Source: a phage
DNA length: 38,456 nt
Direction: 5' to 3' (one strand)
NCBI GenBank assembly: GCA_030819375.1
Contig: GCA_030819375.1_4699.1
The first letter of the stretch is position 1, and each line of letters begins with the position of its first letter. The notes beneath the pieces were generated by a model. It was given only the letters and a program-made list of their open reading frames with translations, did not search any database and was not told the origin of the DNA. Position numbers and translations under genes: made by a program. Positions 12,685-31,265 of the stretch are shown here, in pieces.

Positions 12685-12782
12685 TGCAAACTGCTTTTAT
12701 TATTCTTGGTATCATATTATTTATGGTAGTATTCTGGGCTTTCTCTGGCATTGACCCAGATTGTGATGGTAACTACGACTGA
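12684..12782 (+). CDS. Small hydrophobic peptide (32 aa), similar design to the preceding one
   Basis: taATG overlap; MQTAFIILGIILFMVVFWAFSGIDPDCDGNYD; one TM-like helix then acidic tail ending YD. Confidence 0.35.
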   Translation: MQTAFIILGIILFMVVFWAFSGIDPDCDGNYD

Positions 12783-12791
12783 GTTATACTC

Positions 12792-12813
12792 AAGGTCACT
12801 TACGAGTGGCCTT
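12792..12813 (+). other. Hairpin (stem aaggtcact/agtggcctt, loop UACG) with the same flanks as the 31213 element
   Basis: ttatactcaagg-[hairpin]-cctttatga framework shared with 31204-31246. Confidence 0.35.
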
Positions 12814-12840
12814 TATGAATAACTTAACTAAGGAAATATT

Positions 12841-13101
12841 ATGATTAAATATACTTCTTATCAGTTAACTAAAGACCGTAAGATAGGTATTGAGGTTAAG
12901 GCTTGGGAGCGAGGTCCTATCTCTGGAGTAATAGAGGTGCGTTCCAATGAAGGTATGATGATTAGAAGACACTTTAGTTTCGCTAAATCTACTTGTAAGC
13001 ATTTAACAGAGGAACAATTCTTACATCATATTATTAATAATATTAAAGCCATCCAGCCTTATGCCAAGCAAGTTGTAGGTAATGTCACAGTAGTACATTG
13101 A
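12841..13101 (+). CDS. Hypothetical protein (86 aa)
   Basis: AAGGA RBS; ORF track. Confidence 0.6.
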   Translation: MIKYTSYQLTKDRKIGIEVKAWERGPISGVIEVRSNEGMMIRRHFSFAKSTCKHLTEEQFLHHIINNIKAIQPYAKQVVGNVTVVH

Positions 13102-13123
13102 TTTACTGGACACTATAGAAGGA
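13101..13123 (+). promoter_or_regulatory. Phage-RNAP promoter (ATTTACTGGACACTATAGAAGGA)
   Basis: Consensus copy overlapping the stop codon of the upstream gene; +1 G at 13118. Confidence 0.8.
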
Positions 13124-13187
13124 AAGCCTAGACAATCTAGGTTTATAAGGTAGTATAGGTAATTAAGTAAATATAGGAGAGATAAAT

Positions 13188-13565
13188 ATGTCTATGGTAA
13201 CTACTCTGGTATTCGTAGCTCAATACTTTCGTGGTCTTGCTAATAAGTTCAAGTCCAAGGCTATCAAAGCTATTGAGTCTCGCATCGAGGCAGTACAGGC
13301 AGAGCAAGTTAAAGTTGAAGAACATCGCAGCTCTCAAATGATTGACTGCCATAACCGCCACTATTCATCTCGTGATGACCTTAATGCACGCCAAGTCAAA
13401 GAGGTTGAAGAGATGCTGGCACGTCACCAGCAAGAGCGCGACAGCCTGAAAGCTGAATTTGAAGAGAACAAGGCATCCATCGCCCTTGTACATCAAGCCG
13501 CATCTGACAGCCTGAAGAAAGAGATTGTTATGCTGGAAATTGAGTTAGACAACCTGACCAAATAA
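13188..13565 (+). CDS. Hypothetical protein (125 aa) with short hydrophobic N-terminus and predicted coiled coil
   Basis: AGGAGA RBS; heptad-like charged repeats; no embedded lipoprotein ORF found in the other frames. Confidence 0.65.
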   Translation: MSMVTTLVFVAQYFRGLANKFKSKAIKAIESRIEAVQAEQVKVEEHRSSQMIDCHNRHYSSRDDLNARQVKEVEEMLARHQQERDSLKAEFEENKASIALVHQAASDSLKKEIVMLEIELDNLTK

Positions 13566-13586
13566 TTACTGGACACTATAGAACAA
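13565..13586 (+). promoter_or_regulatory. Phage-RNAP promoter (AATTACTGGACACTATAGAACA)
   Basis: Consensus copy overlapping the stop of the upstream gene; +1 G at 13581. Confidence 0.7.
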
Positions 13587-13642
13587 TAGGTCGGCTTAGT
13601 TCGGCCTATGATTGTGTAGTGTAACAATAGGAGACTAAATAA

Positions 13643-14449
13643 ATGGCACGTGGTGATTTTGATTTTGGTGCTCAGGTTACTAAAGCTGAAGGTAAGGTTT
13701 TTAAGAACCCTGAAGTTGGTGATCATGAAGCAGTAATCTCTGGCATCATTCATGTGGGTTCCTTCCAAGATATCTTTAAGAAAGGTAATACCACTGAAGT
13801 TAAGAAGCCAGCAAACTTTGTTCTTGTTAAGATTGTACTGATGGGTGACGATGACAAGAACGAAGATGATTCTCGCATGGAACAGTGGATGGCTGTGCCT
13901 CTGAAGTCTGGTGACAAGGCAACCTTGACTAAGTTCCTGAATGCAGTTGACCCTAAAGAGCTGCTTGGTGGTTTCGATGACTTCATTGGTGAATGCCTGA
14001 CTGCAACTATGGTTGGCTCTGGCGACAAGAAGGATGATGGTACTTTCAAGTATGTTAACTGGAAAGGCTTTGGCGGTATGCCTGATAAGTTGAAGAAGCT
14101 TGTAATGGCTCAGGTAGAAGAGGAAGGTCTGTCTATGACAGGTCATATCACCTTCGACAAGCTGACCAAAGAAATCCTTGATGACATTCCTGCTAACTTG
14201 GTACGTCAATACTTCCTGAACGAGACACCTCGTGGTAAGAACCTGTCTGTTGCTGGCTCTCACGTAGAAGCTATTATCAAAGCTGCTCGTGAAGAAGACC
14301 CTGAATGGAAGAAGGCTAAGAAGAAAGACGAGGAAGATGCTACTCCAGCTAATCGTAAGTCTCTGGATACTGGCGAGTCTGTTCCACAGGAAGTACCTGA
14401 AGCAGAAGATACTCCTGCACCGGAGATGGATGAGGACGCGGAATATTAA
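13643..14449 (+). CDS. Putative ssDNA-binding protein (gp2.5-like), 268 aa; function inferred
   Basis: Strong RBS (AGGAGA) directly after a promoter; size and acidic C-terminal tail ending in an aromatic residue (...PEMDEDAEY) resemble T7 gp2.5. Confidence 0.45.
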   Translation: MARGDFDFGAQVTKAEGKVFKNPEVGDHEAVISGIIHVGSFQDIFKKGNTTEVKKPANFVLVKIVLMGDDDKNEDDSRMEQWMAVPLKSGDKATLTKFLNAVDPKELLGGFDDFIGECLTATMVGSGDKKDDGTFKYVNWKGFGGMPDKLKKLVMAQVEEEGLSMTGHITFDKLTKEILDDIPANLVRQYFLNETPRGKNLSVAGSHVEAIIKAAREEDPEWKKAKKKDEEDATPANRKSLDTGESVPQEVPEAEDTPAPEMDEDAEY

Positions 14450-14458
14450 GGAGAAAGG

Positions 14459-14677
14459 GTGAAAGTACAAATCGTAACCCTGCACTGCAAGAAGGGTATC
14501 ACAACGCTCGGAGGTGGCACTTTCCACTCTTTCTCCGAAGGGGAGATTTATGCTGACCTGCACTACATCTGGCGCGACGGACAGCACGTGGTGAACTACA
14601 GCGACCCAGCTACGGGGAAACGCCACGGCGTATCGCTTCCGGCGCATGACATTGCTCAGGTGAACACAGTTTTATAA
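14459..14677 (+). CDS. Hypothetical protein (72 aa), GTG start
   Basis: AGGAG 5 nt upstream of GTG 14459; ORF track. Confidence 0.55.
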   Translation: MKVQIVTLHCKKGITTLGGGTFHSFSEGEIYADLHYIWRDGQHVVNYSDPATGKRHGVSLPAHDIAQVNTVL

Positions 14678-14678
14678 A

Positions 14679-14694
14679 GTCTCACGTGTGAGAC
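14679..14694. repeat. GTCTCACGTGTGAGAC hairpin element (copy 5)
   Basis: 6-bp stem with 4-nt loop directly after the stop codon at 14677 and 15 bp upstream of the promoter at 14710. Confidence 0.7.
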
Positions 14695-14709
14695 AAATCG
14701 GTGTCCGGT

Positions 14710-14732
14710 ATTTACTGGACACTATAGAAGAG
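14710..14732 (+). promoter_or_regulatory. Phage-RNAP promoter (ATTTACTGGACACTATAGAAGAG)
   Basis: Perfect consensus; +1 G at 14727. Confidence 0.85.
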
Positions 14733-14782
14733 AAGAATTTTAATCGGCGATAATGCCATAACCAACAAAAGGCGAATTTAAT

Positions 14783-15154
14783 ATGTTCAAGATTGAAACT
14801 ATCGTAAACCGTGTTGTTAAAGGTGCTGCTCTGGTATCCGTTGAGTCTTTCATTATCGTCGATGAAGATGATCAACTGGTAGCTGGTACTAAGGCTTACG
14901 ATACCCGTGAAGAAGCTCAGGCTAAGATTGACAGCATGGGTAACTTCGCTGCTGGTCTGGAGTTCGCTCGTGCTTGCTTCCCTGAGCAGGCTGACAAAGC
15001 TCAGATTGGTAAGGCTAATATCGTAGCTGAATATCTGGATTGGGTTGCTGCTGGTAAACCAATGAAAGAAATTAAGGCTGCTGAAGAAGCTGAAGCTCCA
15101 GCAGAAGAAGTAGCTGCACCGGAAACTCCGGTAAGCGAAGAGGAAGAATTTTGA
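14783..15154 (+). CDS. Acidic hypothetical protein (123 aa) ending ...SEEEEF; gene sits between a promoter and a terminator
   Basis: Promoter 14710 upstream, terminator 15213 downstream; acidic C-terminal tail ending in Phe. Confidence 0.8.
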   Translation: MFKIETIVNRVVKGAALVSVESFIIVDEDDQLVAGTKAYDTREEAQAKIDSMGNFAAGLEFARACFPEQADKAQIGKANIVAEYLDWVAAGKPMKEIKAAEEAEAPAEEVAAPETPVSEEEEF

Positions 15155-15212
15155 TAATAGCAGGTGTTGCCTCTGTTAGTCCTAGCTGACTATCACGCTC
15201 ACCTCATCTAAT

Positions 15213-15246
15213 GCCCTGTCTGCCTTAGTGTAGGCAGGGTCTTTTG
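15213..15246 (+). terminator. Intrinsic terminator (paralog of the post-capsid terminator)
   Basis: gccctgtctgccttagtgtaggcagggtcttttg: GC-rich hairpin then TCTTTTG; near-identical architecture at 24342. Confidence 0.7.
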
Positions 15247-15271
15247 CGTAATAGTTATTGGAGAGTGAATT

Positions 15272-15556
15272 ATGCCGACTATTGAAGAACGTTTCCTGAT
15301 TCACGTAAGCTTCTCTCCCATACATCTTGGTTATCTTATCACTATTCTATTAGGTGAAGAGATTTATCTGCATAACTACTTAATACCAGAGTATGTATGC
15401 CGTCGAGATAAGATACACCCTGCTAATTGGGCGAAGGAGTGGTTGCGTGAACATGTGCTGAAGGAGTGGCCTACATGCGACCAAACTTCGACTTCGGAGC
15501 TACAGTATCGGAAGACAATAATCTCATCCTGTGGCCAACTGAAGGTAATCGAATAG
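15272..15556 (+). CDS. Hypothetical protein (94 aa), overlaps the exonuclease start
   Basis: GGAGAG RBS; ORF track. Confidence 0.4.
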   Translation: MPTIEERFLIHVSFSPIHLGYLITILLGEEIYLHNYLIPEYVCRRDKIHPANWAKEWLREHVLKEWPTCDQTSTSELQYRKTIISSCGQLKVIE

Positions 15557-16503
15557 CTTTAATAGACGCTGATATGCTACCTTACATCATCGGGTATACA
15601 ATCAGTGAAATGACTTATGTACGAGCTACAACTCGTGTTAAGTCAGGACAAGTCCCATCAATCAAAGATACCCCTGAGTGTAAGCAAGCGTGTGACCGTG
15701 TGAACTCCTTGCTTAACTCTTGGGTGTATGCAGCAGAGTGTGATGCAGCTAAGTTATTCATGACGAAATCAGAAGCTAACTTCCGTGTTCGCCTAGCCTT
15801 CACCAAGCCTTATAAAGGTCAACGTAAGACCGAGAAGCCTCCGTTCTTCTATGAATTGCGAGAGCATCTCTTAGAGGTTCATGGTGCAATCTTGGCAGAT
15901 GGAGAAGAGGCTGATGACCTCATGAGCATTGCACAATGGGACAGCCACCGCCGCTTCCAGCAAGATACAGGTAACGAGTTCCCTATCGGTAGTCCAGAGC
16001 ATAAAGCATTCTCTGATACTTGCATCGTTTCATTGGATAAGGATTTGATGATTGTTCCCGGTTGGCACCTTCAGCCGGGACAAGAGAAGAAATGGGTAGA
16101 GCCTATGGGTTGGCTTGAGTTACGCCGTAAGGCTAATGGTCAGGTTAAAGACCTTAAAGGTGCTGGCCTCATGTTTCATTATGCACAGATGATTATCGGT
16201 GATGATATTGATAACTATGCTGGCATACCTGGACGTGGTGCTAAATATGCCTATGACCTTCTCAAAGATTGTAAGACAGAGAAAGGGTTGTACATGGCAG
16301 TGCTTGGTGCTTACAAGGCTAAGTTCGGACATGGACAAGTTAAGATTAAGAATTACCGAGGTGGTTATCGTATCGGCAAGGCTTTTGACCTGATGCTCGA
16401 ATGTGGTCGCCTAGCTCACATGGCAAGATTCAAAGGTGATATATGGCGAGCCGATAAGAACCCAATCTTGTGGGGAGATGATGCGGAATGGTTAGCAAAT
16501 TAA
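15475..16503 (+). CDS. 5'-3' exonuclease (T7 gp6-like)
   Basis: IALIDADMLPYII aligns with T7 gp6 ILVMDGDWLVF; ATG 15475 has AAGGAG 8 nt upstream (track start 15466 is GTG with no spacer). Confidence 0.9.
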   Translation: MRPNFDFGATVSEDNNLILWPTEGNRIALIDADMLPYIIGYTISEMTYVRATTRVKSGQVPSIKDTPECKQACDRVNSLLNSWVYAAECDAAKLFMTKSEANFRVRLAFTKPYKGQRKTEKPPFFYELREHLLEVHGAILADGEEADDLMSIAQWDSHRRFQQDTGNEFPIGSPEHKAFSDTCIVSLDKDLMIVPGWHLQPGQEKKWVEPMGWLELRRKANGQVKDLKGAGLMFHYAQMIIGDDIDNYAGIPGRGAKYAYDLLKDCKTEKGLYMAVLGAYKAKFGHGQVKIKNYRGGYRIGKAFDLMLECGRLAHMARFKGDIWRADKNPILWGDDAEWLAN

Positions 16504-16898
16504 AATCATCGGAGGTAGCAGCTTATAAGAGGGAATTGCTAGAGAAGCAAGGATGGAAGTGCCCCCTATGTGGCGGCAGTCTCAAGGCTGTTACTCCTAT
16601 AAACCGTGTACTTGACCATGACCATGAGACAGGATTCTGCCGTGCTGTTGTATGCCGAGGCTGCAATGGTGCAGAAGGAAAGATTAAGGGTGTTATCTCT
16701 GGTTATGGTAAGGCTGGTAACAACCGTTACTTCCAGCTTCAATGGTTAGAGCGACTATATGAATACTGGAAGTTACATAGTACGCCTCAGACAGATAAGT
16801 TATATCACAAACACCAAACGGAGGCAGAGAAGCGCGAGGCTAAGAACCGTAAGGCACGCCTTGCTTATGCAAGAAAGAAGGAGGTTAAAGTTGGGTAA
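16488..16898 (+). CDS. Endonuclease VII-type Holliday junction resolvase (136 aa)
   Basis: CPLCGG...LDHDHETGFCRAVVCRGCNGAEG matches the T4 endo VII zinc-binding/H-N-H signature. Confidence 0.9.
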   Translation: MVSKLKSSEVAAYKRELLEKQGWKCPLCGGSLKAVTPINRVLDHDHETGFCRAVVCRGCNGAEGKIKGVISGYGKAGNNRYFQLQWLERLYEYWKLHSTPQTDKLYHKHQTEAEKREAKNRKARLAYARKKEVKVG

Positions 16899-17898
16899 GC
16901 TTCGCAGCTTGTACAAAGACTCCGAGGTACTTGATGCAATCGAGCAAGCTACCGACGAGAAAGGTAATGTTAATTACAATGAGATGGCACGTGTATTATC
17001 GTGTCACCCTGTGGGTAAGAAGATTACCCGCCAGTTGGCTCGATACTGGCATGGTCAATTCAAGAAGACCAAGAAGAATGGTGATTATTACCAGACCCTT
17101 CTGCAAGAAGATAAGCGTATCAAAGAAGAGCGTAAGCTCAGGACTCCTGACCGCTACGAGGATTTGGCTATTGTGCCATTGCCTGACTCGCCTCATCGAA
17201 GTGTACTGGTGATCCCTGATACTCATGCACCTTATGAGCACCCAGATACCCTAGAGTTCCTTGCAGCCGTGGCAGCACGTTACCGTCCAGACACAGTGGT
17301 ACACCTAGGAGATGAGGCAGACAAACATGCCTTGTCATTCCACGATTCGGACCCAAATCTGGATAGTGCTGGCATGGAGTTAGAGAAGGCTCGTATCTTC
17401 ATGCACAAATTGCACAAGATGTTCCCTGTGATGCGCCTGTGTCACTCCAACCACGGCTCTATGCACTTCCGTAAGGCAAGCGCCAAGGGCATCCCTGTGC
17501 AATACCTGCGCACCTACCGTGAAGTTTTCTTCCCGCAGGGAGGTGGCGACCAGTGGGATTGGCAGCATACGCACGTCCTTGAGTTGCCGAATGGTGAACA
17601 AGTGGCATTCAAGCATCAACCTGCTGGCTCTGTCCTAGCAGATGCAGCGCATGAGCGTATGAACCTAGTGTGTGGTCACTTGCACGGTAAGATGTCTGTG
17701 GAGTACGCACGTAATACACATGAACAGTATTGGGCTGTGCAAGGTGGCTGCTTAATTGATGAGTCATCCCGTGCATTTGCCTATGGTCGTGAGTCTAAAT
17801 ACAAGCCAGCATTAGGTTGTGTGGTCATTCTGGAGGGTGTGCCTCACATTGTCCCGATGCAAACCAATAGCGACAACCGTTGGATTGGCAAGATTTAG
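16891..17898 (+). CDS. Calcineurin-like metallophosphoesterase (start uncertain: TTG 16891 preferred over ATG 16867 or track start 16759)
   Basis: Motifs VIPDTHAPY, LGDEADKH, CGHLHG; AGGAGG 6 nt upstream of TTG 16891, which overlaps the endo VII stop. Confidence 0.75.
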   Translation: MGKLRSLYKDSEVLDAIEQATDEKGNVNYNEMARVLSCHPVGKKITRQLARYWHGQFKKTKKNGDYYQTLLQEDKRIKEERKLRTPDRYEDLAIVPLPDSPHRSVLVIPDTHAPYEHPDTLEFLAAVAARYRPDTVVHLGDEADKHALSFHDSDPNLDSAGMELEKARIFMHKLHKMFPVMRLCHSNHGSMHFRKASAKGIPVQYLRTYREVFFPQGGGDQWDWQHTHVLELPNGEQVAFKHQPAGSVLADAAHERMNLVCGHLHGKMSVEYARNTHEQYWAVQGGCLIDESSRAFAYGRESKYKPALGCVVILEGVPHIVPMQTNSDNRWIGKI

Positions 17899-17914
17899 TT
17901 GACACTATAGAACA
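17893..17914 (+). promoter_or_regulatory. Phage-RNAP promoter (ATTTAGTTGACACTATAGAACA)
   Basis: Consensus copy overlapping the upstream stop; +1 G at 17910. Confidence 0.7.
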
Positions 17915-17998
17915 AAGGGCTAGGTAAGACTTTATCGGCTGGCGTATCCAAATGATATTGCACTAGCCCTTGATTGCATAGTGAATGGAGGATTCAAT

Positions 17999-18151
17999 AT
18001 GTCACACTATGAATGTAAGAAGTGTCATAAGCGTTATGATTACTGTACTTGTGGTCAAGAGAAAACATCTTTTAAAGTTGGAGACAAGGTATTTCGTAAT
18101 GAAAAAAGATTCGATTCCTTGGAATCAATACTGCAAAGAAGCTGGTATTGA
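17999..18151 (+). CDS. Small zinc-ribbon-like protein (50 aa; CxxC...CxC)
   Basis: GGAGG 8 nt upstream of ATG 17999; MSHYECKKCHKRYDYCTCGQ...; the track ORF 17985 has no RBS. Confidence 0.4.
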   Translation: MSHYECKKCHKRYDYCTCGQEKTSFKVGDKVFRNEKRFDSLESILQRSWY

Positions 18152-18503
18152 CCCTGATAGCCCTGTAACCATAGATGATATTGATGGCATTAACTTGTGC
18201 TTTCGTGAGGTGAGGGGTACAGGTTGGGATTCCAAAAAATTCAAACTTGCATCTGATAAGTTAGACAACAATATGGTAACTCAGCCTAAGCACTACGAGT
18301 TCTTTGATGGTGTAGAGGCAATCACTATCATTGCCCGCAGTATGACTGAAAAGCAATTCGCTGGGTACTGCATGGGTAATGCCCTTAAGTATCGCCTACG
18401 TGCAGGTAAGAAGTTCAATACTGAAGAAGACTTGAAGAAGGCAGACTATTATAAAGAGTTATTCCAGAAGCATCGTCACGAATGTATTGATGAGGATATT
18501 TGA
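18099..18503 (+). CDS. Conserved phage hypothetical protein (track ORF 17985..18503; ATG 18099 is a plausible start)
   Basis: ORF track frame; motif QPKHYEFFDGVEAITIIARSMTEKQFAGYCMGNALKYRLRAGKK reads like a conserved phage domain of unknown function. Confidence 0.55.
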   Translation: MKKDSIPWNQYCKEAGIDPDSPVTIDDIDGINLCFREVRGTGWDSKKFKLASDKLDNNMVTQPKHYEFFDGVEAITIIARSMTEKQFAGYCMGNALKYRLRAGKKFNTEEDLKKADYYKELFQKHRHECIDEDI

Positions 18504-18504
18504 T

Positions 18505-18672
18505 ATGGAAGTTAAATTGTACAGAGGTTACTTTGGCAACTTGTACAAAGTAAGTCGCAAGGGTTCTATATTAACATCCAATGATGAAGGTGCAACTTTA
18601 AGTGCCTATGGTTCTGACTTAGCGTACTTTAAAGAGGCAATAGTCAAAGGTGTGATGAAGGAGGTGAAATGA
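18505..18672 (+). CDS. Hypothetical protein (55 aa)
   Basis: ATG 18505 immediately follows the upstream stop, GAGGA RBS; track start 18487 is TTG. Confidence 0.5.
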   Translation: MEVKLYRGYFGNLYKVSRKGSILTSNDEGATLSAYGSDLAYFKEAIVKGVMKEVK

Positions 18673-19616
18673 ACATCTTCCAATTCCTAGGCCTTCCAGA
18701 AGATCACCGCAATCACCCATTCATGTTGGTGAAACATCGCGGTGAAGTTCCTGAGAAGAAATTAACCTTTCCATGTTATGCACAGGTGAAACGAGATGGA
18801 ATATTCAGTGCTGTTGTGGTGCGTAATGATGGTGTTGTTGCCATCTTTGGTCGTACTGGTAAGAAGCTCGCAAATGTTGAAGCCTTGGAGAAGGCATTTA
18901 GTGTATTTCCTGTCGGGTTGTATCTTGGTGAGTTGCAATCTATGGCTGTTGATGTTTATCTTGAAGCTCTATCAGGAGTGGTAAACCCTAATCGTACCGA
19001 GCCACTTGATTTCATAGGCCAGCAGATTAAAGACAACCTGTATATCGACTTCTTCGATATGTTAACCATTAAGGCATTCCATGATGGATTCACTGATGTT
19101 TCTTATCTCAAACGTTACGATGCTTTACATCGTCGCATCGGCGCTCATCTTAGCGGGTACAACGCTATCCTTCCTATTACTCCTTGCCATAATGAGCGAG
19201 AGGTTGAAGCGTTTGCACAAGCGCAAATAGATGCAGGCCGAGAGGGTGCTGTGTTTAAACTGGACTGTGATTATGAAGCAGGCCACAAAGGTTATCGTCA
19301 GACTAAAGAAGTCCGTAAGGTAACTTATGACCTTACTTGTATTGGCTTTGAAGAAGGCAAAGGCAAGTACAAAGGTAAGGTAGCTAACCTCATTTTCAAA
19401 TGGAAAGGAGGCAAGACAATCAAAGCTATGCTCGGTAAAGGGTGGACTCATGCAGATGCAGAACAGATGTTCCACGATATCAAACATGGTGGACGATTGA
19501 ATGTCATTGGTAAAATCTTTGAAGTCAAAGGTCTTCAGGATTCAAGCAAGGGCAACATTCGTCTGCCCAAAGCGGGAGAATTAAGACATGACAAAGATGA
19601 ACCAGATTTCTTTTGA
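18669..19616 (+). CDS. ATP-dependent DNA ligase (315 aa)
   Basis: Adenylation motif KRDG (YAQVKRDGIF); GAAGGAGG RBS. Confidence 0.9.
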   Translation: MNIFQFLGLPEDHRNHPFMLVKHRGEVPEKKLTFPCYAQVKRDGIFSAVVVRNDGVVAIFGRTGKKLANVEALEKAFSVFPVGLYLGELQSMAVDVYLEALSGVVNPNRTEPLDFIGQQIKDNLYIDFFDMLTIKAFHDGFTDVSYLKRYDALHRRIGAHLSGYNAILPITPCHNEREVEAFAQAQIDAGREGAVFKLDCDYEAGHKGYRQTKEVRKVTYDLTCIGFEEGKGKYKGKVANLIFKWKGGKTIKAMLGKGWTHADAEQMFHDIKHGGRLNVIGKIFEVKGLQDSSKGNIRLPKAGELRHDKDEPDFF

Positions 19617-19803
19617 TTCCATGAAGGCAACTCGTGCAGTTGAGGTGGCAGAGGCTATCTTTGAAACTCTATCCTGTGGCATGGAAGTGCCATATACTTT
19701 ACTTGCTGATGCAGAAGAACTTGGTCTTTCTGTAGAAGCTATCCAAGAGAAGGTTGACGAATTATATGGTACAGACGAAGAAGAAACCTACGATTTCATT
19801 TGA
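19588..19803 (+). CDS. Hypothetical acidic protein (71 aa)
   Basis: ORF track; GGGAGA RBS; overlaps the ligase 3' end. Confidence 0.5.
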   Translation: MTKMNQISFDSMKATRAVEVAEAIFETLSCGMEVPYTLLADAEELGLSVEAIQEKVDELYGTDEEETYDFI

Positions 19804-19936
19804 AGGAATGGAGATGCTTGAGATGATTCTCAAGCCTTCCTCTCCGAAAGTGACTAAGACTCATGAAGAGTTAATCGTAGATGAAGTGAAGCGTTACATT
19901 ATGGATTGTGTTAGAGCACAACTGGTGGTTCAATGA
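19754..19936 (+). CDS. Hypothetical protein (start uncertain, possibly 19814)
   Basis: ORF track; overlaps both neighbours. Confidence 0.35.
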   Translation: MTNYMVQTKKKPTISFEGMEMLEMILKPSSPKVTKTHEELIVDEVKRYIMDCVRAQLVVQ

Positions 19937-20415
19937 TACGTCCAGCTTCCTTCCTAGATATTCCTGAGATTATTAATCTCGGAGACAAGTATGTAGAAGA
20001 AGAAGTCAAGGTAGTGGCACATCATTCTGCGTCGTGGAATGCGGAACAAAGTGCAGCTAACCTATGTGCCTCTCTAATCAGAGATGATTTATTCCTGTGG
20101 GTTGCTGTAGATGAAGGGCAGATTGTAGGCTTCCTGTGGGCTGGTTATCACGACCTAGCACCTTGGACGCCAGTGCGTGTTGCGTCGGATATTCTCTTCT
20201 ATATTGTACCGGAGAAGCGAGGGACGCTACTTGGTATGCGACTAATCAAAGCCTACAAGCAATGGGCTTTTGAGAAAGGGTGTGCTGAGGTACGCATGTC
20301 CATAGCCTCTGGTATTAATGAGGAACGTGTTGGACGTATGTATAGGCGACTAGGCTTTGAGACGTTCGGCACTGTGTATAACTTAAACTTTAAGGAGATA
20401 ACATGGGTGTCGTGA
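19933..20415 (+). CDS. GNAT-family N-acetyltransferase (160 aa)
   Basis: Acetyl-CoA binding signature ...VPEKRGTLLGMRLI... with typical GNAT spacing. Confidence 0.75.
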   Translation: MIRPASFLDIPEIINLGDKYVEEEVKVVAHHSASWNAEQSAANLCASLIRDDLFLWVAVDEGQIVGFLWAGYHDLAPWTPVRVASDILFYIVPEKRGTLLGMRLIKAYKQWAFEKGCAEVRMSIASGINEERVGRMYRRLGFETFGTVYNLNFKEITWVS

Positions 20416-20612: not shown

Positions 20613-20616
20613 TATA

Positions 20617-23063: not shown

Positions 23064-23069
23064 TTCAGT

Positions 23070-23092
23070 ATTTACTGGACACTATAGAAGGG
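23070..23092 (+). promoter_or_regulatory. Phage-RNAP promoter upstream of the capsid gene
   Basis: ATTTACTGGACACTATAGAAGGG; +1 G at 23087. Confidence 0.85.
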
Positions 23093-23142
23093 AGAAAAGT
23101 TCTCCCTAGTTATCAATTTGATTTATAAGGAGATTATAACAC

Positions 23143-24333
23143 ATGTCTACACCGAATACTCTGACTAACGTTGCTGTATCTGCATCCGGTGAGGTTGACA
23201 GTCTTCTCATTGAGAAGTTTAATGGTAAGGTGAATGAGCAGTACCTGAAAGGTGAGAACATTCTGTCTTACTTTGATGTACAAACTGTTACTGGCACTAA
23301 CACAGTGAGCAACAAATATTTGGGCGAAACTGAGTTGCAGGTGCTAGCACCGGGTCAGTCTCCTAATGCCACCGCTACTCAGGCGGATAAAAACCAGTTG
23401 GTAATTGATACCACTGTCATTGCTCGTAACACTGTGGCTCACATCCACGATGTACAAGGTGACATCGATAGCCTGAAACCAAAACTGGCTATGAACCAAG
23501 CCAAGCAACTGAAACGTCTGGAAGACCAGATGGCAATTCAGCAGATGCTGTTAGGCGGTATTGCTAACACCAAGGCCAAACGTGGCAAGCCGCGTGTTAA
23601 AGGGCATGGCTTCTCTATCAACGTTAACGTAACTGAGAGTGAAGCACTGGCTAACCCTCAGTATGTTATGGCTGCGGTAGAGTATGCTCTGGAGCAACAG
23701 CTTGAGCAGGAAGTGGACATCTCTGATGTAGCTATCATGATGCCGTGGAAGTTCTTCAATGCTCTGCGTGATGCAGACCGAATTGTAGATAAGACTTACA
23801 CTATCAGCCAGTCTGGTGCAACCATTAATGGCTTCGTTCTCTCTTCTTATAACTGCCCTGTGATCCCGTCTAACCGGTTCCCTGCCTTCGCTCAGAGTCA
23901 GGCTCACCACCTGTTGTCTAATGAAGATAACGGCTATCGTTATGACCCTATCGCAGAGATGAATGGTGCAGTTGCTGTTCTGTTCACTGCCGACGCACTG
24001 CTGGTGGGTCGTACCATTGAAGTGACTGGTGACATCTTCTATGAGAAGAAAGAGAAGACTTATTACATTGACACCTTCATGGCTGAGGGTGCAATCCCTG
24101 ACCGTTGGGAAGCAGTGTCTGTAGTCACTACTAAGCGTAATGAAGCTACTGGTGCCGCAGGAGGAGGAGGCACAGACCACGCCACTGTTCTGTCCCGTGC
24201 GCAGCGTAAGGCTGTATATGTCAAGACCGCAGGTGCTGCACCAGCAGGTATCCAAGCGGAAGACTTTGTAGCGGCGGTACGTGCTGTAATGGCAAATGGC
24301 ATCAAGTCGACTGCACTGAAATCTACTGAGTAA
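23143..24333 (+). CDS. Major capsid protein, 396 aa
   Basis: Promoter-gene-terminator unit, strong RBS (AAGGAGA), position after scaffold. Confidence 0.95.
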   Translation: MSTPNTLTNVAVSASGEVDSLLIEKFNGKVNEQYLKGENILSYFDVQTVTGTNTVSNKYLGETELQVLAPGQSPNATATQADKNQLVIDTTVIARNTVAHIHDVQGDIDSLKPKLAMNQAKQLKRLEDQMAIQQMLLGGIANTKAKRGKPRVKGHGFSINVNVTESEALANPQYVMAAVEYALEQQLEQEVDISDVAIMMPWKFFNALRDADRIVDKTYTISQSGATINGFVLSSYNCPVIPSNRFPAFAQSQAHHLLSNEDNGYRYDPIAEMNGAVAVLFTADALLVGRTIEVTGDIFYEKKEKTYYIDTFMAEGAIPDRWEAVSVVTTKRNEATGAAGGGGTDHATVLSRAQRKAVYVKTAGAAPAGIQAEDFVAAVRAVMANGIKSTALKSTE

Positions 24334-24341
24334 TAACCTAT

Positions 24342-24375
24342 GCCCTATCTACCTTGCGTAGGTAGGGTTCTTTTG
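24342..24375 (+). terminator. Intrinsic terminator after the capsid gene (T7 Tphi-like position)
   Basis: gccctatctaccttgcgtaggtagggttcttttg: hairpin then TTCTTTTG. Confidence 0.75.
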
Positions 24376-24388
24376 TTTAGGAGGATTC

Positions 24389-25129
24389 ATGCCTTTAATT
24401 CAAAATACAAGTGATGTTGGACGTATCATGGCTGAGGCTTCCTTCAATATCATTGATAGCAAGCTGGAAGCAGTTAACCTGTGTATGCGAGCTATTGGTC
24501 GTGAGGGTGTGGATTCCCTTGACTCTGGCGACTTAGATGCTGAAGATGCTAACAAGATTATTGATATTGTCTCACAACGTTTCCAATACAATAAGGGCGG
24601 TGGTTGGTGGTTTAACAGAGAACCTAACTGGTTACTTAAACCTGACACAAATGGTGAAGTGAACATGCCAAACAATTGCCTTGCTGTTCTCCAATGCTAT
24701 GCTCTGGGTGAACGTAAAGTCCCTATAACTATGCGCGCAGGTAAACTGTACTCTGTTTGGAATCACACTTTCGACATGTCAAAGTATGTGAATCAGGATG
24801 GGCGTATTAGGTTGACTTTGGTAACATTGCTGCCTTTTGAGCATCTACCTGCAAGCGTAATGCAAGCCATTGCCTATCAGGCTGCCGTAGAGTTTATTGT
24901 GTCTAAAGATGCAGATAAGACTAAACTACAAGCACACCAGCAGATTGCAGCACAATTGATGATTGATGTTCAGTCAGAGCAGTCTTCTCAGAAGAGACTT
25001 AATATACTTGTACATAACCCCACTCAGCGCAACTTTGGCATTATGGCAGGTGGCTCTCAGAATGTACCAGCGTTCTCCTATTCACCTTATGGTACTTACC
25101 CTGTAAGGCCGTGGGAGGTTGATAGATAA
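24389..25129 (+). CDS. Tail tubular protein A (gp11-like), 246 aa
   Basis: Position and size; AGGAGG RBS. Confidence 0.8.
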   Translation: MPLIQNTSDVGRIMAEASFNIIDSKLEAVNLCMRAIGREGVDSLDSGDLDAEDANKIIDIVSQRFQYNKGGGWWFNREPNWLLKPDTNGEVNMPNNCLAVLQCYALGERKVPITMRAGKLYSVWNHTFDMSKYVNQDGRIRLTLVTLLPFEHLPASVMQAIAYQAAVEFIVSKDADKTKLQAHQQIAAQLMIDVQSEQSSQKRLNILVHNPTQRNFGIMAGGSQNVPAFSYSPYGTYPVRPWEVDR

Positions 25130-27534
25130 TGGAAGTACAAGGCTCTTTAGGTCGTCAGATTCAAGGTATTAGCCAACAACCAGCAGCAGTGCGGTTAGAT
25201 GGTCAATGTACTGATATGGTTAATATGGTTCCAGATGTAGTCAACGGTACACAATCTCGCATGGGAAGCACACACATTGCTAGGCTTCTTGATTCTGGTG
25301 ACGAAAACATGGCAACACATCATTACCGCAGAGGTGATGGTGTAGAGGAATATTTCTTCATTATGAAGAAAGGTAGCGTGCCAGAAATATTTGACAAAGA
25401 AGGTCGTAAATGCACTGTGACCTCTCAGGATGAACCTATGGCCTATCTTGCTGAGGTTGTGAACCCGAGAGAAGACGTGCAGTTCATGACTATTGCTGAT
25501 GTAACATTTATGCTTAACAGGCGTAAAGTAGTGAAAGCTCGTAGTGATAAGTCTCCAAAGGTGGGAAACAAGGCTATTGTGTTTTCTGCCTACGGGCAGT
25601 ATGGCACTTCGTACACTATCTCTATTAACGGCGAGCAAGCGGCGACCTTCAAAACTCCAGATGGAAGCGACCCTAGTCATGTAGAACAGATTCGCACTGA
25701 GTACCTAGCAACTAAGCTATATGAGAGTTTACAGACATGGAGTAAAGCGTCACAGTACACCTTGCAAAGAGAAGGCACTAGTATCTACATTGAAACTAAA
25801 GATGGTAGTGATTTCACTATTACTACTACAGATGGGGCCAAGGGTAAGGACTTGGTTGCCATAAAGAACCGAGTGTCATCTACAGACTTACTTCCCTCAA
25901 GAGCACCAGAAGGGTACAAGGTACAGGTGTGGCCTACAGGTAGTAAACCAGAATCTCGGTATTGGCTAGAGGCTGTACCTAAAGAGGGAGGTAACTTAGT
26001 TGCTTGGCAAGAAACTATTGCAGCAGATGTGTTACTTGGCTTTGATAAAGACACTATGCCTTATATTATAGAGCGTACAGGTATTGTCGGAGGTGTGGCA
26101 CAGTTTAAGATACGACATGGCGATTGGGAAGACCGTAAGGTAGGCGATGACCTAACTAACCCTATGCCTTCTTTTATTGATGAAGATGTACCACAGGCGA
26201 TTGGTGGTATGTTCATGGTGCAGAACCGTCTTTGTGTCACAGCAGGAGAAGCTGTCATAGCAACTAGGACTTCTCACTTCTTTGACTTCTTCCGCTTCTC
26301 CGCAGTGTCTGAGGTTGCAACAGATCCTTTTGATATTTTCTCAGATGCAAGTGAGGTCTACCAGCTCAAACATGCAGTAACACTAGATGGGGCAACGGTA
26401 TTATTCTCAGACACATCTCAGTTCATACTTCCTGGGGATAAAGTATTAGAGAAATCTAATGTCATACTCAAGCCTGCTACAACTTTCGAAGTGGATAATA
26501 GGGTGTCACCTGTGGCAACTGGTGAATCCGTGATGTTTGCTACAAGTGAAGGTGCTTACTCTGGTGTGCGTGAGTTTTATACCGACTCTTACAGCGACAC
26601 TAAGAAAGCACAGGCTGTTACTAGTCATGTTAACAAGTTGATAGAAGGTAATATAACTCATATGGTTGCTAGCACTAATATCAACAGGTTACTTGTGGTA
26701 ACAGACAGGGACCCTAATATTGTCTATTGCTATGACTGGTTGTGGCAAGGGACAGATCGTGTACAATCTGCATGGCATAAGTGGGTGTGGCCTAAAGATA
26801 CTTTGATTCGCTCTATGTTCTATTCCTCAGAGGTATTGTATCTCCTTGTAGAACGAGGTAATACTGGTTTGTATCTAGAGGTGATGGATATGGGTGATGC
26901 TCTTACTTATGGTTTAGTTGACAGAATTAGACTGGATAGGCAAGCAGAGTTGATCTTCACCTATGATGCTAATACAGACCAGTGGGTTTCTAATGAGTTG
27001 CCTTGGAAGCCTACTGACCCAGCCTTACTTGAGTGTGTGATAATTCAAGGGTGGCCTGCTTATATTGGTGGTTCTTTTCATTTTGAATATGATGAAGCCA
27101 GTAATAAGCTAATTACAACTTTTGATTTATCAGAAGAAGGCACTAATGCTATAGCTGTCGTAGGGCAGTTGTATCAGCAGGAGTTTGAGCCAACACAGGT
27201 CGTTATTCGAGATAACCAAGATAGAGTGTACTACATAGATGTGCCAGTGGTAGGCCTAGTTCACCTTAACTTGGATAAATACCCTGACTTTGAAGTTCAT
27301 ATCAAGAACTTAAAGAGTGGCAAATTAAGAAAGGCTTTGGCATCTAACAGGAAAGGCGGGGCACTTAATAATGTTGTTGGTTATGTCAAGCCAGAAGAGG
27401 GGTCATTCAAATTTCCACTAAGATCCCTTAGTACAGATACTGTTTATCGTATCATTGTTAACTCCCCTCATACATTCCAACTCAGGGATATTGAGTGGGA
27501 AGGTTCGTATAACCCAACTAAGAGGAGGGTATGA
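25129..27534 (+). CDS. Tail tubular protein B (gp12-like), 801 aa
   Basis: Size close to T7 gp12 (~794 aa); position. Confidence 0.9.
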   Translation: MEVQGSLGRQIQGISQQPAAVRLDGQCTDMVNMVPDVVNGTQSRMGSTHIARLLDSGDENMATHHYRRGDGVEEYFFIMKKGSVPEIFDKEGRKCTVTSQDEPMAYLAEVVNPREDVQFMTIADVTFMLNRRKVVKARSDKSPKVGNKAIVFSAYGQYGTSYTISINGEQAATFKTPDGSDPSHVEQIRTEYLATKLYESLQTWSKASQYTLQREGTSIYIETKDGSDFTITTTDGAKGKDLVAIKNRVSSTDLLPSRAPEGYKVQVWPTGSKPESRYWLEAVPKEGGNLVAWQETIAADVLLGFDKDTMPYIIERTGIVGGVAQFKIRHGDWEDRKVGDDLTNPMPSFIDEDVPQAIGGMFMVQNRLCVTAGEAVIATRTSHFFDFFRFSAVSEVATDPFDIFSDASEVYQLKHAVTLDGATVLFSDTSQFILPGDKVLEKSNVILKPATTFEVDNRVSPVATGESVMFATSEGAYSGVREFYTDSYSDTKKAQAVTSHVNKLIEGNITHMVASTNINRLLVVTDRDPNIVYCYDWLWQGTDRVQSAWHKWVWPKDTLIRSMFYSSEVLYLLVERGNTGLYLEVMDMGDALTYGLVDRIRLDRQAELIFTYDANTDQWVSNELPWKPTDPALLECVIIQGWPAYIGGSFHFEYDEASNKLITTFDLSEEGTNAIAVVGQLYQQEFEPTQVVIRDNQDRVYYIDVPVVGLVHLNLDKYPDFEVHIKNLKSGKLRKALASNRKGGALNNVVGYVKPEEGSFKFPLRSLSTDTVYRIIVNSPHTFQLRDIEWEGSYNPTKRRV

Positions 27535-28259
27535 TGGCAGTAATGGCAACAGTAGGATCAAGCCTAGCCAGTATGTTCTCCAGTAGTGCAGGTGCTGCGG
27601 CTGCTAGTAGCGCTGCTGGTAGTGCCGCCGCTGGGAGTGGTGGTGTGCTTGGCTCTGTCGGAAGTTTCTTAGGTGGAAGCTCTGCTGGCTTTTCTAATGC
27701 AGGTTTGTTGTCTGCTGGACTACAAGGCTTAAACTTACTAGGCGGCCTATTCGGTGGACGAGATACCGCTAAGGCTATGCAGAAAGCACAAGAAGAAGAG
27801 TGGAGACAAAGGCTAGAAGCCACACGTGAAGCCTATTCTTCTGTGGCAAATGCAGAACGGTCTGCTGCAAAGCAATATCATTCTGACTTCCTTAATAATC
27901 AAATTTCACTGATGCAGCAACGAGCGCAAGTTGCAGTAATGGCAGGTGCTACTGGAACAGGTGGTAGCTCCATCACATCCATGCTCAATGATTTGACGGC
28001 AGAAGGCGGTCGTAATCAGTCAACCATTATAGATAATTATGAGAATCAGCAAATCAACTTTGCCAACCAGTTGAAGTCTATTCAACGCAGTGGACAGATG
28101 CAGATGCGAACGTTTGACAAACCTTCCGCTTTGGGTACTTTGGTGAAAGGTATACCAAGCCTTGCATCTTCCTATGTCACCGGAAGTAAAGCAGGTATGG
28201 CGCTTGGCAAGGCTATCACTGAGTCTCGTACTTATTCATCAGGAACTAGAGGGGTTTAA
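27531..28259 (+). CDS. Internal virion protein (small core protein), 242 aa, Gly/Ala/Ser-rich N-terminus
   Basis: Position after tail tube B; GAGGAGGG RBS. Confidence 0.8.
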   Translation: MMAVMATVGSSLASMFSSSAGAAAASSAAGSAAAGSGGVLGSVGSFLGGSSAGFSNAGLLSAGLQGLNLLGGLFGGRDTAKAMQKAQEEEWRQRLEATREAYSSVANAERSAAKQYHSDFLNNQISLMQQRAQVAVMAGATGTGGSSITSMLNDLTAEGGRNQSTIIDNYENQQINFANQLKSIQRSGQMQMRTFDKPSALGTLVKGIPSLASSYVTGSKAGMALGKAITESRTYSSGTRGV

Positions 28260-31202
28260 ATGGCAATTGAACGTCAAGCTGTACAAGGTTTAGAAAGAGT
28301 ACAGTCAAGGGGTGCGCCAATGCCTATGTCTTTCACACCACGACAAGTGAGTATCTCAGGGGGCGCTGATGCCTCCGGTAGTAGATTTTTGGAAGACTTA
28401 GTAAACGCCGCAAGTAGTGTGGCTGATGTCACTACTGCTATCCTTAATCAGCAAGTAGAAGACGATAAGGTTCGCCAGATGGATAGGGCTTTGTCTGGCA
28501 TGATGCCTTCTGAGGATGCCACGGTAGGCGGTGCTCGTGCTCATATGCTGGTTAGTTTACAAAATGATGTAATCGCACAGACAACTGCGCTACAAGCAGA
28601 AGCACAGCGATTTCAAGGTAGTGACGAGGATTGGGAAAACTATGTAGTTCAATCTCGTAATGAGGTACAAAATAGGTTATGGCAAAGTTATCCAGAGCTT
28701 CGTGGTGACAAAGATTCTATGAGGCTTGTCACTAACGCGTTCATGGAGCAGCAACCTAGAATTACTGCAACTAGAGCAGAGGCTAAACTTCGTCAAGAAG
28801 AAGAAGCACGAATGCAATCTATGCAGTCTCGTATTATCATGGCTACAAGGGACGTAGCGCCAGATGCCACTGGTGCAGCTCTTATCCAGCTACAAAAAGA
28901 AGCACTGGCGATGGGTCTTAGTAAACCTGAGTTTGATCAAATGGTTGCTAAGATTGCATCTGAAAGAGCGGCAGTAGGAGATGATAGTCTTATTCAGGGA
29001 ACCAAGGCATTGGTGGATGATAAGGGTGTCTCTTTGTATGACCGTGTTGGTGCTTTGCAAACTGGAGAAATTCAAGCTAACAGAACTTGGGCTGCTCAGA
29101 ATCAGGTTGCCCTCTTCGAGAAGAAAGATGCAGCTATAAAGGCATTCGATGCAGGGCAACTTACTCGCGAAGAGTTACTTCAGGTGATGCAGAATCACAA
29201 TGAATTGACTGGTGGCACTGCTTGGTCTGATAGCGAGATCAAGGCTATCTTCGATAGGCAAGCTAAGGTTAATGCAGAGAAAGCAAAGCTAGAAGATCTT
29301 ATTGCACGAGGTGAATCTGGGTCGCCTTTAGGCTTACAGGACATTAGTAAGGATGACAGAAAGGCATATGCTGAAGCCTTAGTTAGTACCTACACTAAGC
29401 TGGCAGAAGATGAAATTGCCCGTACTGGTGCAACGGGAGAACAGGCTGAAGCTATTCGCGGTAGGTATGAGCAGATGCGTTATCTTAAATTGGGTCAACA
29501 GCTTATTGAAGACCCGATCATTAAGGAAAGGTATTCGTCGCTTATGCAGCTATCCTCTGCCAACCTCAAGGATATGAATGTTGAACCTGAAGCACTGCAA
29601 ACTATCATGCGAGCACGTGATTCTATTCCAGAGGATGCACGTCGTGCTGTTATGGGAGACAAAGAATATGCCTTTGTTGAGAACTATGACTTAGCAACTC
29701 GCATGGGGTATAACACAGGTCAAGCTATTGAGTTTGCACAGAATGCCTCTCGCGGCGAGAAATTACAAGGTTCTGTGCTCAAAGAACTTAATGATGATGT
29801 AGATGGAGTAGTTAGTGACATTGCAGGAGGCAGCTGGCTCACTTTTGGTGATAACATGAGTGAAATGGGACGTGACATTATGATGGAGGAGGCAAGTACA
29901 ATTGCTAGAGCAATGAAGGTTGCAGGCCATAATAATGACACTATTAAGCGTCACCTTAAATCCTACCTTACAAGCCAGTATACACAATTATCAGAAGGTT
30001 TCTTTACTCAAGGTGTTCTTGTAAAAGGAGACATTCGTACGTTAGGAGATACTATAGGAGTAAACCAAGGAGACGTCCCAATTACTCTCCGTCAGTACCT
30101 AGATAATAACAAACAAGCCCTGCTAGATGCATCAGGTGGGTTAGAGGAAGGCGACCTATATTTTGATGTAGATGCGAAGCGCGGCCTCTTTACTATACGT
30201 GCAGGCTCTGGTCGTGTGCCTGTTACACAGGCAATGCCTTTGTCTGAAATCAAAGGGCAATCCTTGCTTAAGCAACGGTATAATGCAGAGGTTAAAGCAC
30301 GTGATGAAGGGCGTAAGAACTTTGAAGCACAACAAATGCGAATGTGGGGCGCAGGTGGCTACCAAGCACAACCACCTGCAAAGACTACAGCCAAAACTGT
30401 AGGCTCACGTGGGATTGCTGACTTCTTAATGTCACCTGCCTTTGCATCAGGCGAGAATCTACCAGCAAACTTTGAGTTCGGATATAAGAGAAATAATATG
30501 GACTTCTACAATTATGTAGCCAAGATGGAGAATAATACCAATGTAGGTTTTGACCGAGTAGCTGGTGTTTATACACCATACAAAGATGCACATGGTCAGT
30601 CTGTAGGGTACGGTCACTTCCTTACTACTGAAGAGAAGAAGAACGGATACATTATGATTGGTACAGAGAAAGTGCCATTCACTCCGGGACAATCTCAATT
30701 AACACCAGAACGAGCCATGCGCCTTCTACAGCAAGACTTGAAGAGTCATGTGCCAAGTACTTCAGGATGGGCTGTTCCCTTCGAAGAGATGCACCCAGGT
30801 GTTCAGCGTGGCCTTATGGACTTGTCCTATAATTTAGGAAAAGGCGGGATCCAGAATGCTCCTAAGGCATACGCTGCATTTAAGGCTGGCAAGTTTACTG
30901 ATGGCTTCATCGAGATGCTATCTACTGCATCTACTGAAGGCAAGCGCAGCACTGGATTGTTAGTTCGTAGGGCGGAAGCTTATAACCTTGCACAGAGTGG
31001 TGGTGCTATCCCTAAGATTAGTGAAGTGGAGACACGAGCAGATGGATCTATGTATGTGAAGTTTGCAGGACAGATGTCAGAGGCTTTCGTAAATAAATCA
31101 ATCTACAATCAGATTGGTAAGGATGGGTGGATGCAAGTGTATCCTCCAAAGCAAGGTGCACTTGCACCTAACACTCAGATTGGTAGAATCAAACTGAGCT
31201 AG
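28260..31202 (+). CDS. Internal virion (ejection) protein with C-terminal lysozyme-like domain, 980 aa
   Basis: Residues ~740-910: YKDAHGQSVGYGH...LTPERAMRLLQQDL...LMDLSYNLGKGG...LLVRRAEAYNL resembles GH24 phage lysozymes. Confidence 0.9.
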   Translation: MAIERQAVQGLERVQSRGAPMPMSFTPRQVSISGGADASGSRFLEDLVNAASSVADVTTAILNQQVEDDKVRQMDRALSGMMPSEDATVGGARAHMLVSLQNDVIAQTTALQAEAQRFQGSDEDWENYVVQSRNEVQNRLWQSYPELRGDKDSMRLVTNAFMEQQPRITATRAEAKLRQEEEARMQSMQSRIIMATRDVAPDATGAALIQLQKEALAMGLSKPEFDQMVAKIASERAAVGDDSLIQGTKALVDDKGVSLYDRVGALQTGEIQANRTWAAQNQVALFEKKDAAIKAFDAGQLTREELLQVMQNHNELTGGTAWSDSEIKAIFDRQAKVNAEKAKLEDLIARGESGSPLGLQDISKDDRKAYAEALVSTYTKLAEDEIARTGATGEQAEAIRGRYEQMRYLKLGQQLIEDPIIKERYSSLMQLSSANLKDMNVEPEALQTIMRARDSIPEDARRAVMGDKEYAFVENYDLATRMGYNTGQAIEFAQNASRGEKLQGSVLKELNDDVDGVVSDIAGGSWLTFGDNMSEMGRDIMMEEASTIARAMKVAGHNNDTIKRHLKSYLTSQYTQLSEGFFTQGVLVKGDIRTLGDTIGVNQGDVPITLRQYLDNNKQALLDASGGLEEGDLYFDVDAKRGLFTIRAGSGRVPVTQAMPLSEIKGQSLLKQRYNAEVKARDEGRKNFEAQQMRMWGAGGYQAQPPAKTTAKTVGSRGIADFLMSPAFASGENLPANFEFGYKRNNMDFYNYVAKMENNTNVGFDRVAGVYTPYKDAHGQSVGYGHFLTTEEKKNGYIMIGTEKVPFTPGQSQLTPERAMRLLQQDLKSHVPSTSGWAVPFEEMHPGVQRGLMDLSYNLGKGGIQNAPKAYAAFKAGKFTDGFIEMLSTASTEGKRSTGLLVRRAEAYNLAQSGGAIPKISEVETRADGSMYVKFAGQMSEAFVNKSIYNQIGKDGWMQVYPPKQGALAPNTQIGRIKLS

Positions 31203-31212
31203 TGTTATACTC

Positions 31213-31246
31213 AAGGTTTGTCTCACATGTGAGACATGCCTTTATG
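31213..31246 (+). terminator. Hairpin with GTCTCACATGTGAGAC core (copy 6), terminator or processing site
   Basis: Stem ggtttgtctca/tgagacatgcc, loop CATG, then TTTATGA; directly after the stop at 31202. Confidence 0.5.
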
Positions 31247-31265
31247 ACATTAATTAGGAGGTAAC

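Follow-up and report, generated by a model that had tools for sequence, protein, structure and literature searches.

Predicted T7-type RNase III processing signals with a shared frame and exchangeable upper stems in an SP6/K1-5-like coliphage

The 38,456-nucleotide (nt) stretch of phage DNA studied here (NCBI GenBank assembly GCA_030819375.1, contig GCA_030819375.1_4699.1; the whole stretch is called the window below) contains four intergenic hairpin elements, sites A to D. Very probably they serve as T7-type RNase III processing signals in the polycistronic mRNAs that an SP6/K1-5-like phage transcribes rightward. Their homology with the corresponding sites of phage T7 speaks for processing by host RNase III rather than for termination. 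Judged by sequence comparison, the window represents a Vectrevirus, a K1-5/SP6-like coliphage of the T7 supergroup: a 2-kb probe is up to 98% identical to Vectrevirus genomes (K1-5/K1E group; Autographiviridae, Molineuxvirinae).

A preliminary description of the window had noted almost identical flanks around two different hairpins, at 12783-12819 (site A) and 31204-31246 (site B). Both are read directly from the sequence, and their identity is far above chance. The 12-mer TTATACTCAAGG is present in exactly two copies, at sites A and B only. CCTTTATGA has exactly three copies on both strands together, two of which are the 3' flanks of sites A and B; by chance, 38.5 kb should hold a further exact copy of any one 13-mer about 0.001 times. 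The inner hairpin of site A has a stem of 9 base pairs (bp) and a UACG loop, that of site B a 13-position stem interrupted by a single U-U mismatch and based on the palindrome GTCTCACATGTGAGAC. The weaker versions of the frame reported at 8286-8320 (site C) and 9431-9466 (site D) are real as well, ranking fourth and third in the window with the covariance model described below. All four sites lie between genes on the + strand, at or a few bases past a stop codon and 13-50 nt before the next start.

After RNase III cleavage, T7 early mRNAs end in ...CCUUUAU-OH, and the downstream product starts with pGAU. A search of the T7 genome placed the frame ACTCAAGG-hairpin-CCTTTATGA around six sites (R0.3, R0.5, R1.1, R4.7, R6.5 and R18.5). 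There the last U of CCUUUAU falls at 890, 1468, 5887, 13892, 18563 and 36856, positions that Dunn and Studier (1983) reportedly gave as the RNase III cleavage coordinates; the T7 records examined list no RNase III features. Alignment of five of the T7 sites gives a consensus fold with a 9-bp lower stem, an ACUC/UAUGA (4/5-nt) internal loop and a 10-bp upper stem, in which 9 of the 19 pairs show compensatory changes. A covariance model was built from these five T7 sites only and run on the whole window, both strands, without filters. Its four best matches are exactly sites A, B, D and C, in this order (Table 1). The frame ACUCAAGG ... CCUUUAUGA is exact in sites A and B and identical to the T7 sites; the frames of site C (AUCAGGG...CUCUUAUUA) and site D (AGUCAAGGG...CCUUUUAUCA) have diverged and still align to the T7 model. 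Besides this frame, the T7 sites and those of the window are alike in lying between genes on the sense strand, and both have a lower stem of some 9 bp, an internal loop of 4/5 nt and a 9-10-bp upper stem with U-G as its fifth pair; the upper stem of site A (AAGGUCACU/AGUGGCCUU) is nearly that of T7 R1.1 and R0.5. Unlike in T7, sites B, C and D have a longer upper stem (13 bp) on a clade-specific 16-nt palindrome that is also found outside such sites, the loop sequences of C and D are divergent, and 4 nt are missing at the predicted cut of site B in the window. SP6-like phages moreover belong to another subfamily (Molineuxvirinae) than T7.

The preliminary description regarded the frame as a modular signal in which the flanks, and not only the stem, are recognised. 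This idea is essentially right, though the flanks act through structure: the frame is constant, the hairpin exchangeable, and the frame matters as much as the hairpin, but the flanks are not an unstructured recognition sequence. Their outer bases pair with each other as a lower stem (UGAGUUAU with AUAACUUA at site A), ACUC and UAUGA are opposed as an asymmetric internal loop, and the upper stem starts with the inner bases AAGG/CCUU. RNAfold centroids of sites A, C and D and of site B of phage LL11 share this layout of lower stem, internal loop and upper stem with T7 R0.5 and R1.1; folding z-scores are -3.8 for site A, -4.9 for B, -7.4 for C (-30.6 kcal/mol) and -5.2 for D. How far the upper stem can be exchanged is seen in the IMG/VR database, where a scan for ACTCAAGG-N(8-38)-CCTTTATGA returned at least 120 stretches, mostly on contigs of about 38-45 kb. 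The stretches listed hold at least 142 frame matches with at least 81 different inserts. Among the matches listed, 63 of 81 inserts form a hairpin as compared to 36% of shuffles, a test that discriminates poorly.

Conservation of the flanks in relatives, named in the preliminary description as one way to check its claim, was found: the frame is kept in K1-5, LL11, T147P1, SP6, Proteus phage Premi and T7-like phages generally. Site A is identical in K1-5, LL11, T147P1 and SP6, and the orthologues of sites A and B in eight relatives score 33-47.5 bits with the T7-only model. In Premi the frame reads GTTATACTCAAGG...TCTTTATGAATAACATTA. A BLAST search with the 55 nt of site A matched 371 phage records (Escherichia, Yersinia, Vibrio, Klebsiella, Salmonella, Serratia and Aeromonas phages). 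One match falls on a stem_loop of the T3-like phage phiYeO3-12 annotated as 'putative RNase III site R0.45', an annotated counterpart of the T7-type sites. Across two subfamilies of Autographiviridae, few non-coding sequences are thus as well conserved as the T7 RNase III frame.

Pairing is conserved where sequence is not: in orthologues from other genera, compensatory changes preserve the two stems. Among 15 orthologues of site D (primase 79-98% identical), 97.9% of cells in the alignment are paired and 8 of 22 pairs have changed on both sides; none of 500 shuffles reaches this value, and slid controls are 27-47% paired. Site D also has invariant U-G and G-U pairs (e.g. columns 22-41 and 5-58). 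The structure is therefore read on the sense strand, i.e. in the mRNA, because these pairs would be A-C mismatches on the other strand. At site B the lower stem is UAGUGUUAU/AUGACAUUA in the LL11 type versus UAGUACCUA/UAGGCACUA in the K1-5 type (GUUAU/AUGAC versus ACCUA/UAGGC), compensatory changes keeping the pairing.

From these sequences, folds, covariation and the homology to T7 sites we infer cleavage by RNase III, the cut positions and an effect on mRNA stability or translation. In the RNA, pairing of the outer flanks would form a lower stem of 8-12 bp, and ACUC on the 5' side with UAUGA on the 3' side, or variants of them, a small asymmetric internal loop. AAGG/CCUU would open the upper stem, whose remainder is free to vary (9 bp and a UACG loop in A, 13 bp on the palindrome in B, C and D). 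Host RNase III would bind the stacked helix of about two turns and, because of the internal loop, cut one strand only, on the 3' side at UAU^GA (predicted positions in Table 1). The upstream mRNA would be left with a stable 3' hairpin resisting 3' exonucleases, and the downstream mRNA would begin just before its own ribosome-binding site. Internal loops are known to limit RNase III to one phosphodiester, and the 3' hairpin left behind shields the upstream RNA against 3'-5' exonucleases (PMC1540722); it is at such sites that the polycistronic RNAs of T7 undergo processing (PMC6938266). A further positive determinant for RNase III is the proximal box, the base pairs adjoining the scissile bond (PMC1540722). 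The shared CAAGG/CCUUU bases occupy its position, which therefore offers a biochemical reason for their conservation. Other substrates of the Escherichia coli enzyme (rRNA precursor stems, lambda sib, the N leader) share the helix of about two turns; they are mostly long, near-perfect helices cut on both strands, in contrast to the T7 type, where the internal loop leads to a single cut and a 3' hairpin (PMC1540722).

Several points weigh against processing at these sites. No RNase III cleavage data were found for the window phage or for any SP6-like phage. The GenBank record of Premi labels its site-B orthologue a terminator. Sites C and D deviate from the T7 loops (UC/UAU and AGUC/UAUCA) and reach modest scores (E=0.036 and 0.005). 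Site A is 100% identical in SP6 and the window, but it sits inside a block of about 240 bp with 90-100% identity; this match is therefore no independent sign of selection acting on just this element. Finally, the predicted cleavage at site B of the window may differ or fail, as set out below. Regarding annotation, no RNase III site is given in the SP6-like GenBank records, examined as a whole for K1-5 and LL11, for the features under the matches in SP6, which were CDS only, and around the site-B junction in Premi; a scan of the window with Rfam 15 returned no match at gathering score, these sites included.

Site B of the window is without 4 nt (ATGA, one tandem copy) at 31243-31247, a deletion absent from all 108 matching phage records. 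The junction reads CCTTTATGA-CATT in the window versus CCTTTATGAATGACATT in LL11, SP6, Premi and all other matches. The loss looks like slippage in the tandem ATGAATGA and could be a real variant or a sequencing error. With it the internal loop loses its 3' half, and the model score drops from 40 to 24 bits. Because these 4 nt are lost, the 3' strand is fully paired and the fold has a 3-nt bulge on the 5' side instead of an internal loop.

Among the alternatives, it is unlikely that the sites are intrinsic terminators or pause sites for the host or phage RNA polymerase. As in intrinsic terminators, including the T7 Tphi type, a hairpin comes after a gene and is followed by a U-containing sequence: all four hairpins come after stop codons and precede UUUAU or CUUAU, and the site-B orthologue annotated as 'terminator' in Premi (locus L162, OR798392.1 29915-29944) fits such a role. 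However, the tails (UUUAUGA, CUUAUUA and UUUUAUCA) are no U run; with the 5' flank they form a lower stem, conserved and covarying, which a terminator does not require. A terminator scan (G+C-rich hairpin followed by at least five T in eight) called none of sites A to D and did call three other places, the window's true terminators looking different from the four sites; those at 15213-15240 and 24342-24368 are alike (GCCCTGTCTGCC..., GCCCTATCTACC...). In T7 the identical frame marks processing sites, which Dunn and Studier reportedly described in 1983 as such and not as terminators.

Still less probable is a signal at the level of DNA, whether bound by a protein or marking a recombination or module boundary where accessory genes are swapped. 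An accessory open reading frame (ORF) directly downstream of site A is present or absent among relatives, site D has an HNH gene downstream of it, the genomes show mosaicism around site B, and a defence system can recognise hairpin-forming T7 RNase III sites in their DNA form (PMC11707656). Yet the invariant G-U pairs are possible on the sense strand only, covariation keeps the pairing and not the sequence, and the frame stands at many non-homologous positions of T7-like genomes, always in the transcribed orientation; short conserved sequences can also be crossover points without that being their function. A recent functionless local duplication, gene conversion or chance, which the identity of the 13-nt and 9-nt flanks within one genome might suggest, is excluded for practical purposes because of the conservation data, with the frame in T7, phiYeO3-12, SP6, Proteus phages and the IMG/VR stretches, and because of the low chance expectation.

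RNase III processing remains the preferred explanation, and the same model suggests two further, weak candidates in the early region. One lies between a 294-amino-acid (aa) early gene and the RNA polymerase gene, presumably at the position of T7 R1. The other, directly upstream of an ocr-like gene, corresponds in position to T7 R0.3, located upstream of gene 0.3; similar early-region matches in relatives score 15-25 bits.

The palindrome that forms the upper stems of sites B, C and D belongs to a family of its own. GTCTCAC(A/G)TGTGAGAC is found at eight places in the window, where about 0.3 sites are expected by chance (16 matches versus 0.57 expected when both strands are counted). Three of the eight are the upper stems (8295, 9439 and 31220). 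Another three (5936, 6118 and 14679) are free-standing and precede phage promoters by 2-15 nt; of the remaining two, one (318) is close to the left end and the other (6884) falls within the primase/helicase gene. SP6 and many relatives have GTC(T/C)AAC..GTTGGAC at the same orthologous places, and the half-site takes the forms GTCTCAC, GTCTAAC and GTCCAAC in 28 IMG/VR relatives. The family occupies about 8-10 orthologous places per genome in phages with a primase 67-99% identical, and it precedes phage promoters by 0-25 nt, also where the promoter itself has another sequence. Site C is kept in relatives with either flavour of the palindrome. In the primase/helicase gene and, in many relatives, in the unrelated RNA polymerase gene it encodes S-[H/N]-V-L-D, with H in the TCAC and N in the CAAC flavour; the copy in the RNA polymerase gene of the window has decayed to GCTAACGTGCTGGAT (A-N-V-L-D) via different synonymous codons.

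Tentatively, GTC[T/C][C/A]AC-RY-GT[G/T][A/G]GAC might be a signal of SP6-like phages in its own right, recognised by its sequence. A phage or host protein acting as a dimer might bind it, or it might make the phage RNA polymerase pause or act as an insulator for this enzyme; three of the predicted RNase III sites would then have borrowed it for their upper stem. The palindrome in site B of Premi has a 3-nt centre (GTCCAAC-AGT-GTTGGAC), and therefore a hairpin fits better than a dimer site with fixed spacing. Wobble pairs in the palindromes were compatible with the sense strand in 13 cases and with the antisense strand in 10. The idea of a flavour-specific co-evolving factor is weakened by the presence of both flavours in one genome (site D of K1-5, site C of an IMG/VR relative). 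An identity as matS, SlmA, parS or DeoR site was rejected, the order of the half-sites being different. Ten neighbouring proteins of unknown function, scanned with PHROGs and Pfam, showed no DNA- or RNA-binding family that could supply a factor for the palindrome. Full-text literature searches, whose scope did not extend to the SP6 and K1-5 genome papers (Dobbins 2004; Scholl 2004), turned up no account of the palindrome.

Concerning the surroundings of the sites, gene names were assigned by comparison with phage LL11, and the window has 12 SP6-type promoters with the sequence ATTTACYGGACACTATAGAAG, on the + strand only. About 55 nt before site C, the 3' end of the primase/helicase gene contains a phage promoter (8221-8241); RNAs from it would start almost at the processing hairpin, as with T7 phi1.1A/R1.1. 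The accessory ORF directly 3' of site A (12841-13101, 86 aa) is present in the window, T147P1 and SP6 and not in LL11 and K1-5, and has a weak, sub-threshold Pfam match to a phage PDDEXK endonuclease family. Short hairpins stand directly after phage promoter transcription starts at 13122-13145, 13587-13612 and 23088-23105 (e.g. AAGCCTAGACAATCTAGGTTTATAAGG, TAGGTCGGCTTAGTTCGGCCTATGATTG). Their tails are similar to UUUAU/AUGAUU, the motif seen in the processing sites; SP6 keeps the first of these hairpins. They may be further processing or 5'-stabilising structures.

Table 1. Positions of the predicted processing sites, their parts and related features (window coordinates unless another genome is named)
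Feature	Coordinates	Strand	Details
Site A, as read	12783-12819	+	GTTATACTCAAGG-TCACTTACGAGTGG-CCTTTATGAA
Site A, predicted RNase III-type processing signal	12780..12826	+	frame, fold, covariance model
Site A, lower stem	12780-12787 with 12819-12826		UGAGUUAU (including stop TGA 12780-12782) with AUAACUUA
Site A, loops	12788-12791; 12814-12818		5' ACUC; 3' UAUGA
Site A, upper hairpin	12792-12813		AAGGUCACU-UACG-AGUGGCCUU
Site A, predicted cut	12816/12817		U12816 / G12817
Site A, covariance match	12772-12833		45.0 bits, E=3.7e-10
Site B, as read	31204-31247	+	GTTATACTCAAGG-TTTGTCTCACATGTGAGACATG-CCTTTATGA
Site B, predicted RNase III-type signal	31200..31252	+	between 980-aa and 1267-aa internal virion protein genes
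Site B, 5' arm	31200-31209		UAGUGUUAUA (including stop TAG 31200-31202)
Site B, bulge	31210-31212		CUC
Site B, 3' arm	31243-31252		
Site B, upper hairpin	31213-31242		built on palindrome 31220-31235
Site B, position homologous to T7 cut	31245/31246		U31245 / G31246
Site B, covariance match	31192-31258		23.8 bits, E=4.4e-4
Site C, predicted signal	8274..8332	+	after primase/helicase gene (stop 8271-8273)
Site C, lower stem	8274-8285 with 8321-8332		
Site C, upper hairpin	8288-8317		on palindrome 8295-8310
Site C, 3' loop	8318-8320		UAU
Site C, position homologous to T7 cut	8320/8321		
Site C, covariance match	8267-8337		17.2 bits, E=0.036
Site D, predicted signal	9419..9475	+	
Site D, lower stem	9419-9427 with 9467-9475		CAGUCGAUA with UAUUGAUUG
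Site D, loops	9428-9431; 9462-9466		5' AGUC; 3' UAUCA
Site D, upper hairpin	9432-9461		on palindrome 9439-9454
Site D, position homologous to T7 cut	9464/9465		U9464 / C9465
Site D, covariance match	9411-9481		20.2 bits, E=4.8e-3
Candidate fifth site (weak)	2736..2792 (match 2730-2794)	+	14.6 bits, E=0.21; z=-5.1; upper hairpin 2751-2774; loops UC / UAU; lower stem
Candidate sixth site (weak)	1238..1284 (match 1228-1292)	+	12.1 bits, E about 1; z=-4.5
Palindrome copies	318-333, 5936-5951, 6118-6133, 6884-6899, 8295-8310, 9439-9454, 14679-14694, 31220-31235		
Gene-embedded palindrome, window	6883-6900; 4644-4661		primase/helicase; RNA polymerase (decayed copy)
Gene-embedded palindrome, IMG/VR	L145 8364; L146 4964; L159 5754		
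Terminator-like hairpins	5868-5891; 15213-15240; 24342-24368		classical, G+C-rich stem and T run; first after RNA polymerase gene, last after major capsid gene
ocr-like gene	1294-1662		
RNA polymerase gene	3233-5860		comparison with LL11
Primase/helicase gene	6285-8273	+	comparison with LL11
DNA polymerase gene	10022-12568		comparison with LL11
Major capsid protein gene	23143-24333		comparison with LL11
Internal virion protein genes	28260-31202; 31266-35069	+	980 aa; 1267 aa; comparison with LL11
T7 R0.3	862-892 (T7)		ACTCAAGGgtatcgcaaggtgcCCTTTATGA
T7 R0.5	1437-1470 (T7)		ACTCAAGGtcgctcctagcgagtggCCTTTATGA
T7 R1.1	5857-5889 (T7)		ACTCAAGGtcattcgcaagagtggCCTTTATGA
T7 R4.7	13863-13894 (T7)		CCTCAAGG...CCTTCATGA
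T7 R6.5	18511-18565 (T7)		promoter phi6.5 within loop
T7 R18.5	36826-36858 (T7)		ACTCAAGG...TCTTTATGG

The kind of element described here is already known; it is textbook T7 biology and unsurprising to a specialist. The analysis maps four, possibly six, predicted mRNA processing sites on an SP6/K1-5-like coliphage of the therapeutic type. Conservation of the frame is useful for annotation and for phage engineering, the latter because insertions beside these sites would alter mRNA processing. Hairpin-forming DNA of T7-type RNase III sites has been reported to trigger the Lamassu/DdmABC defence system (PMC11707656), and in this respect the predicted sites are relevant to defence as well. The palindrome family is the sole part that may lead to something new.

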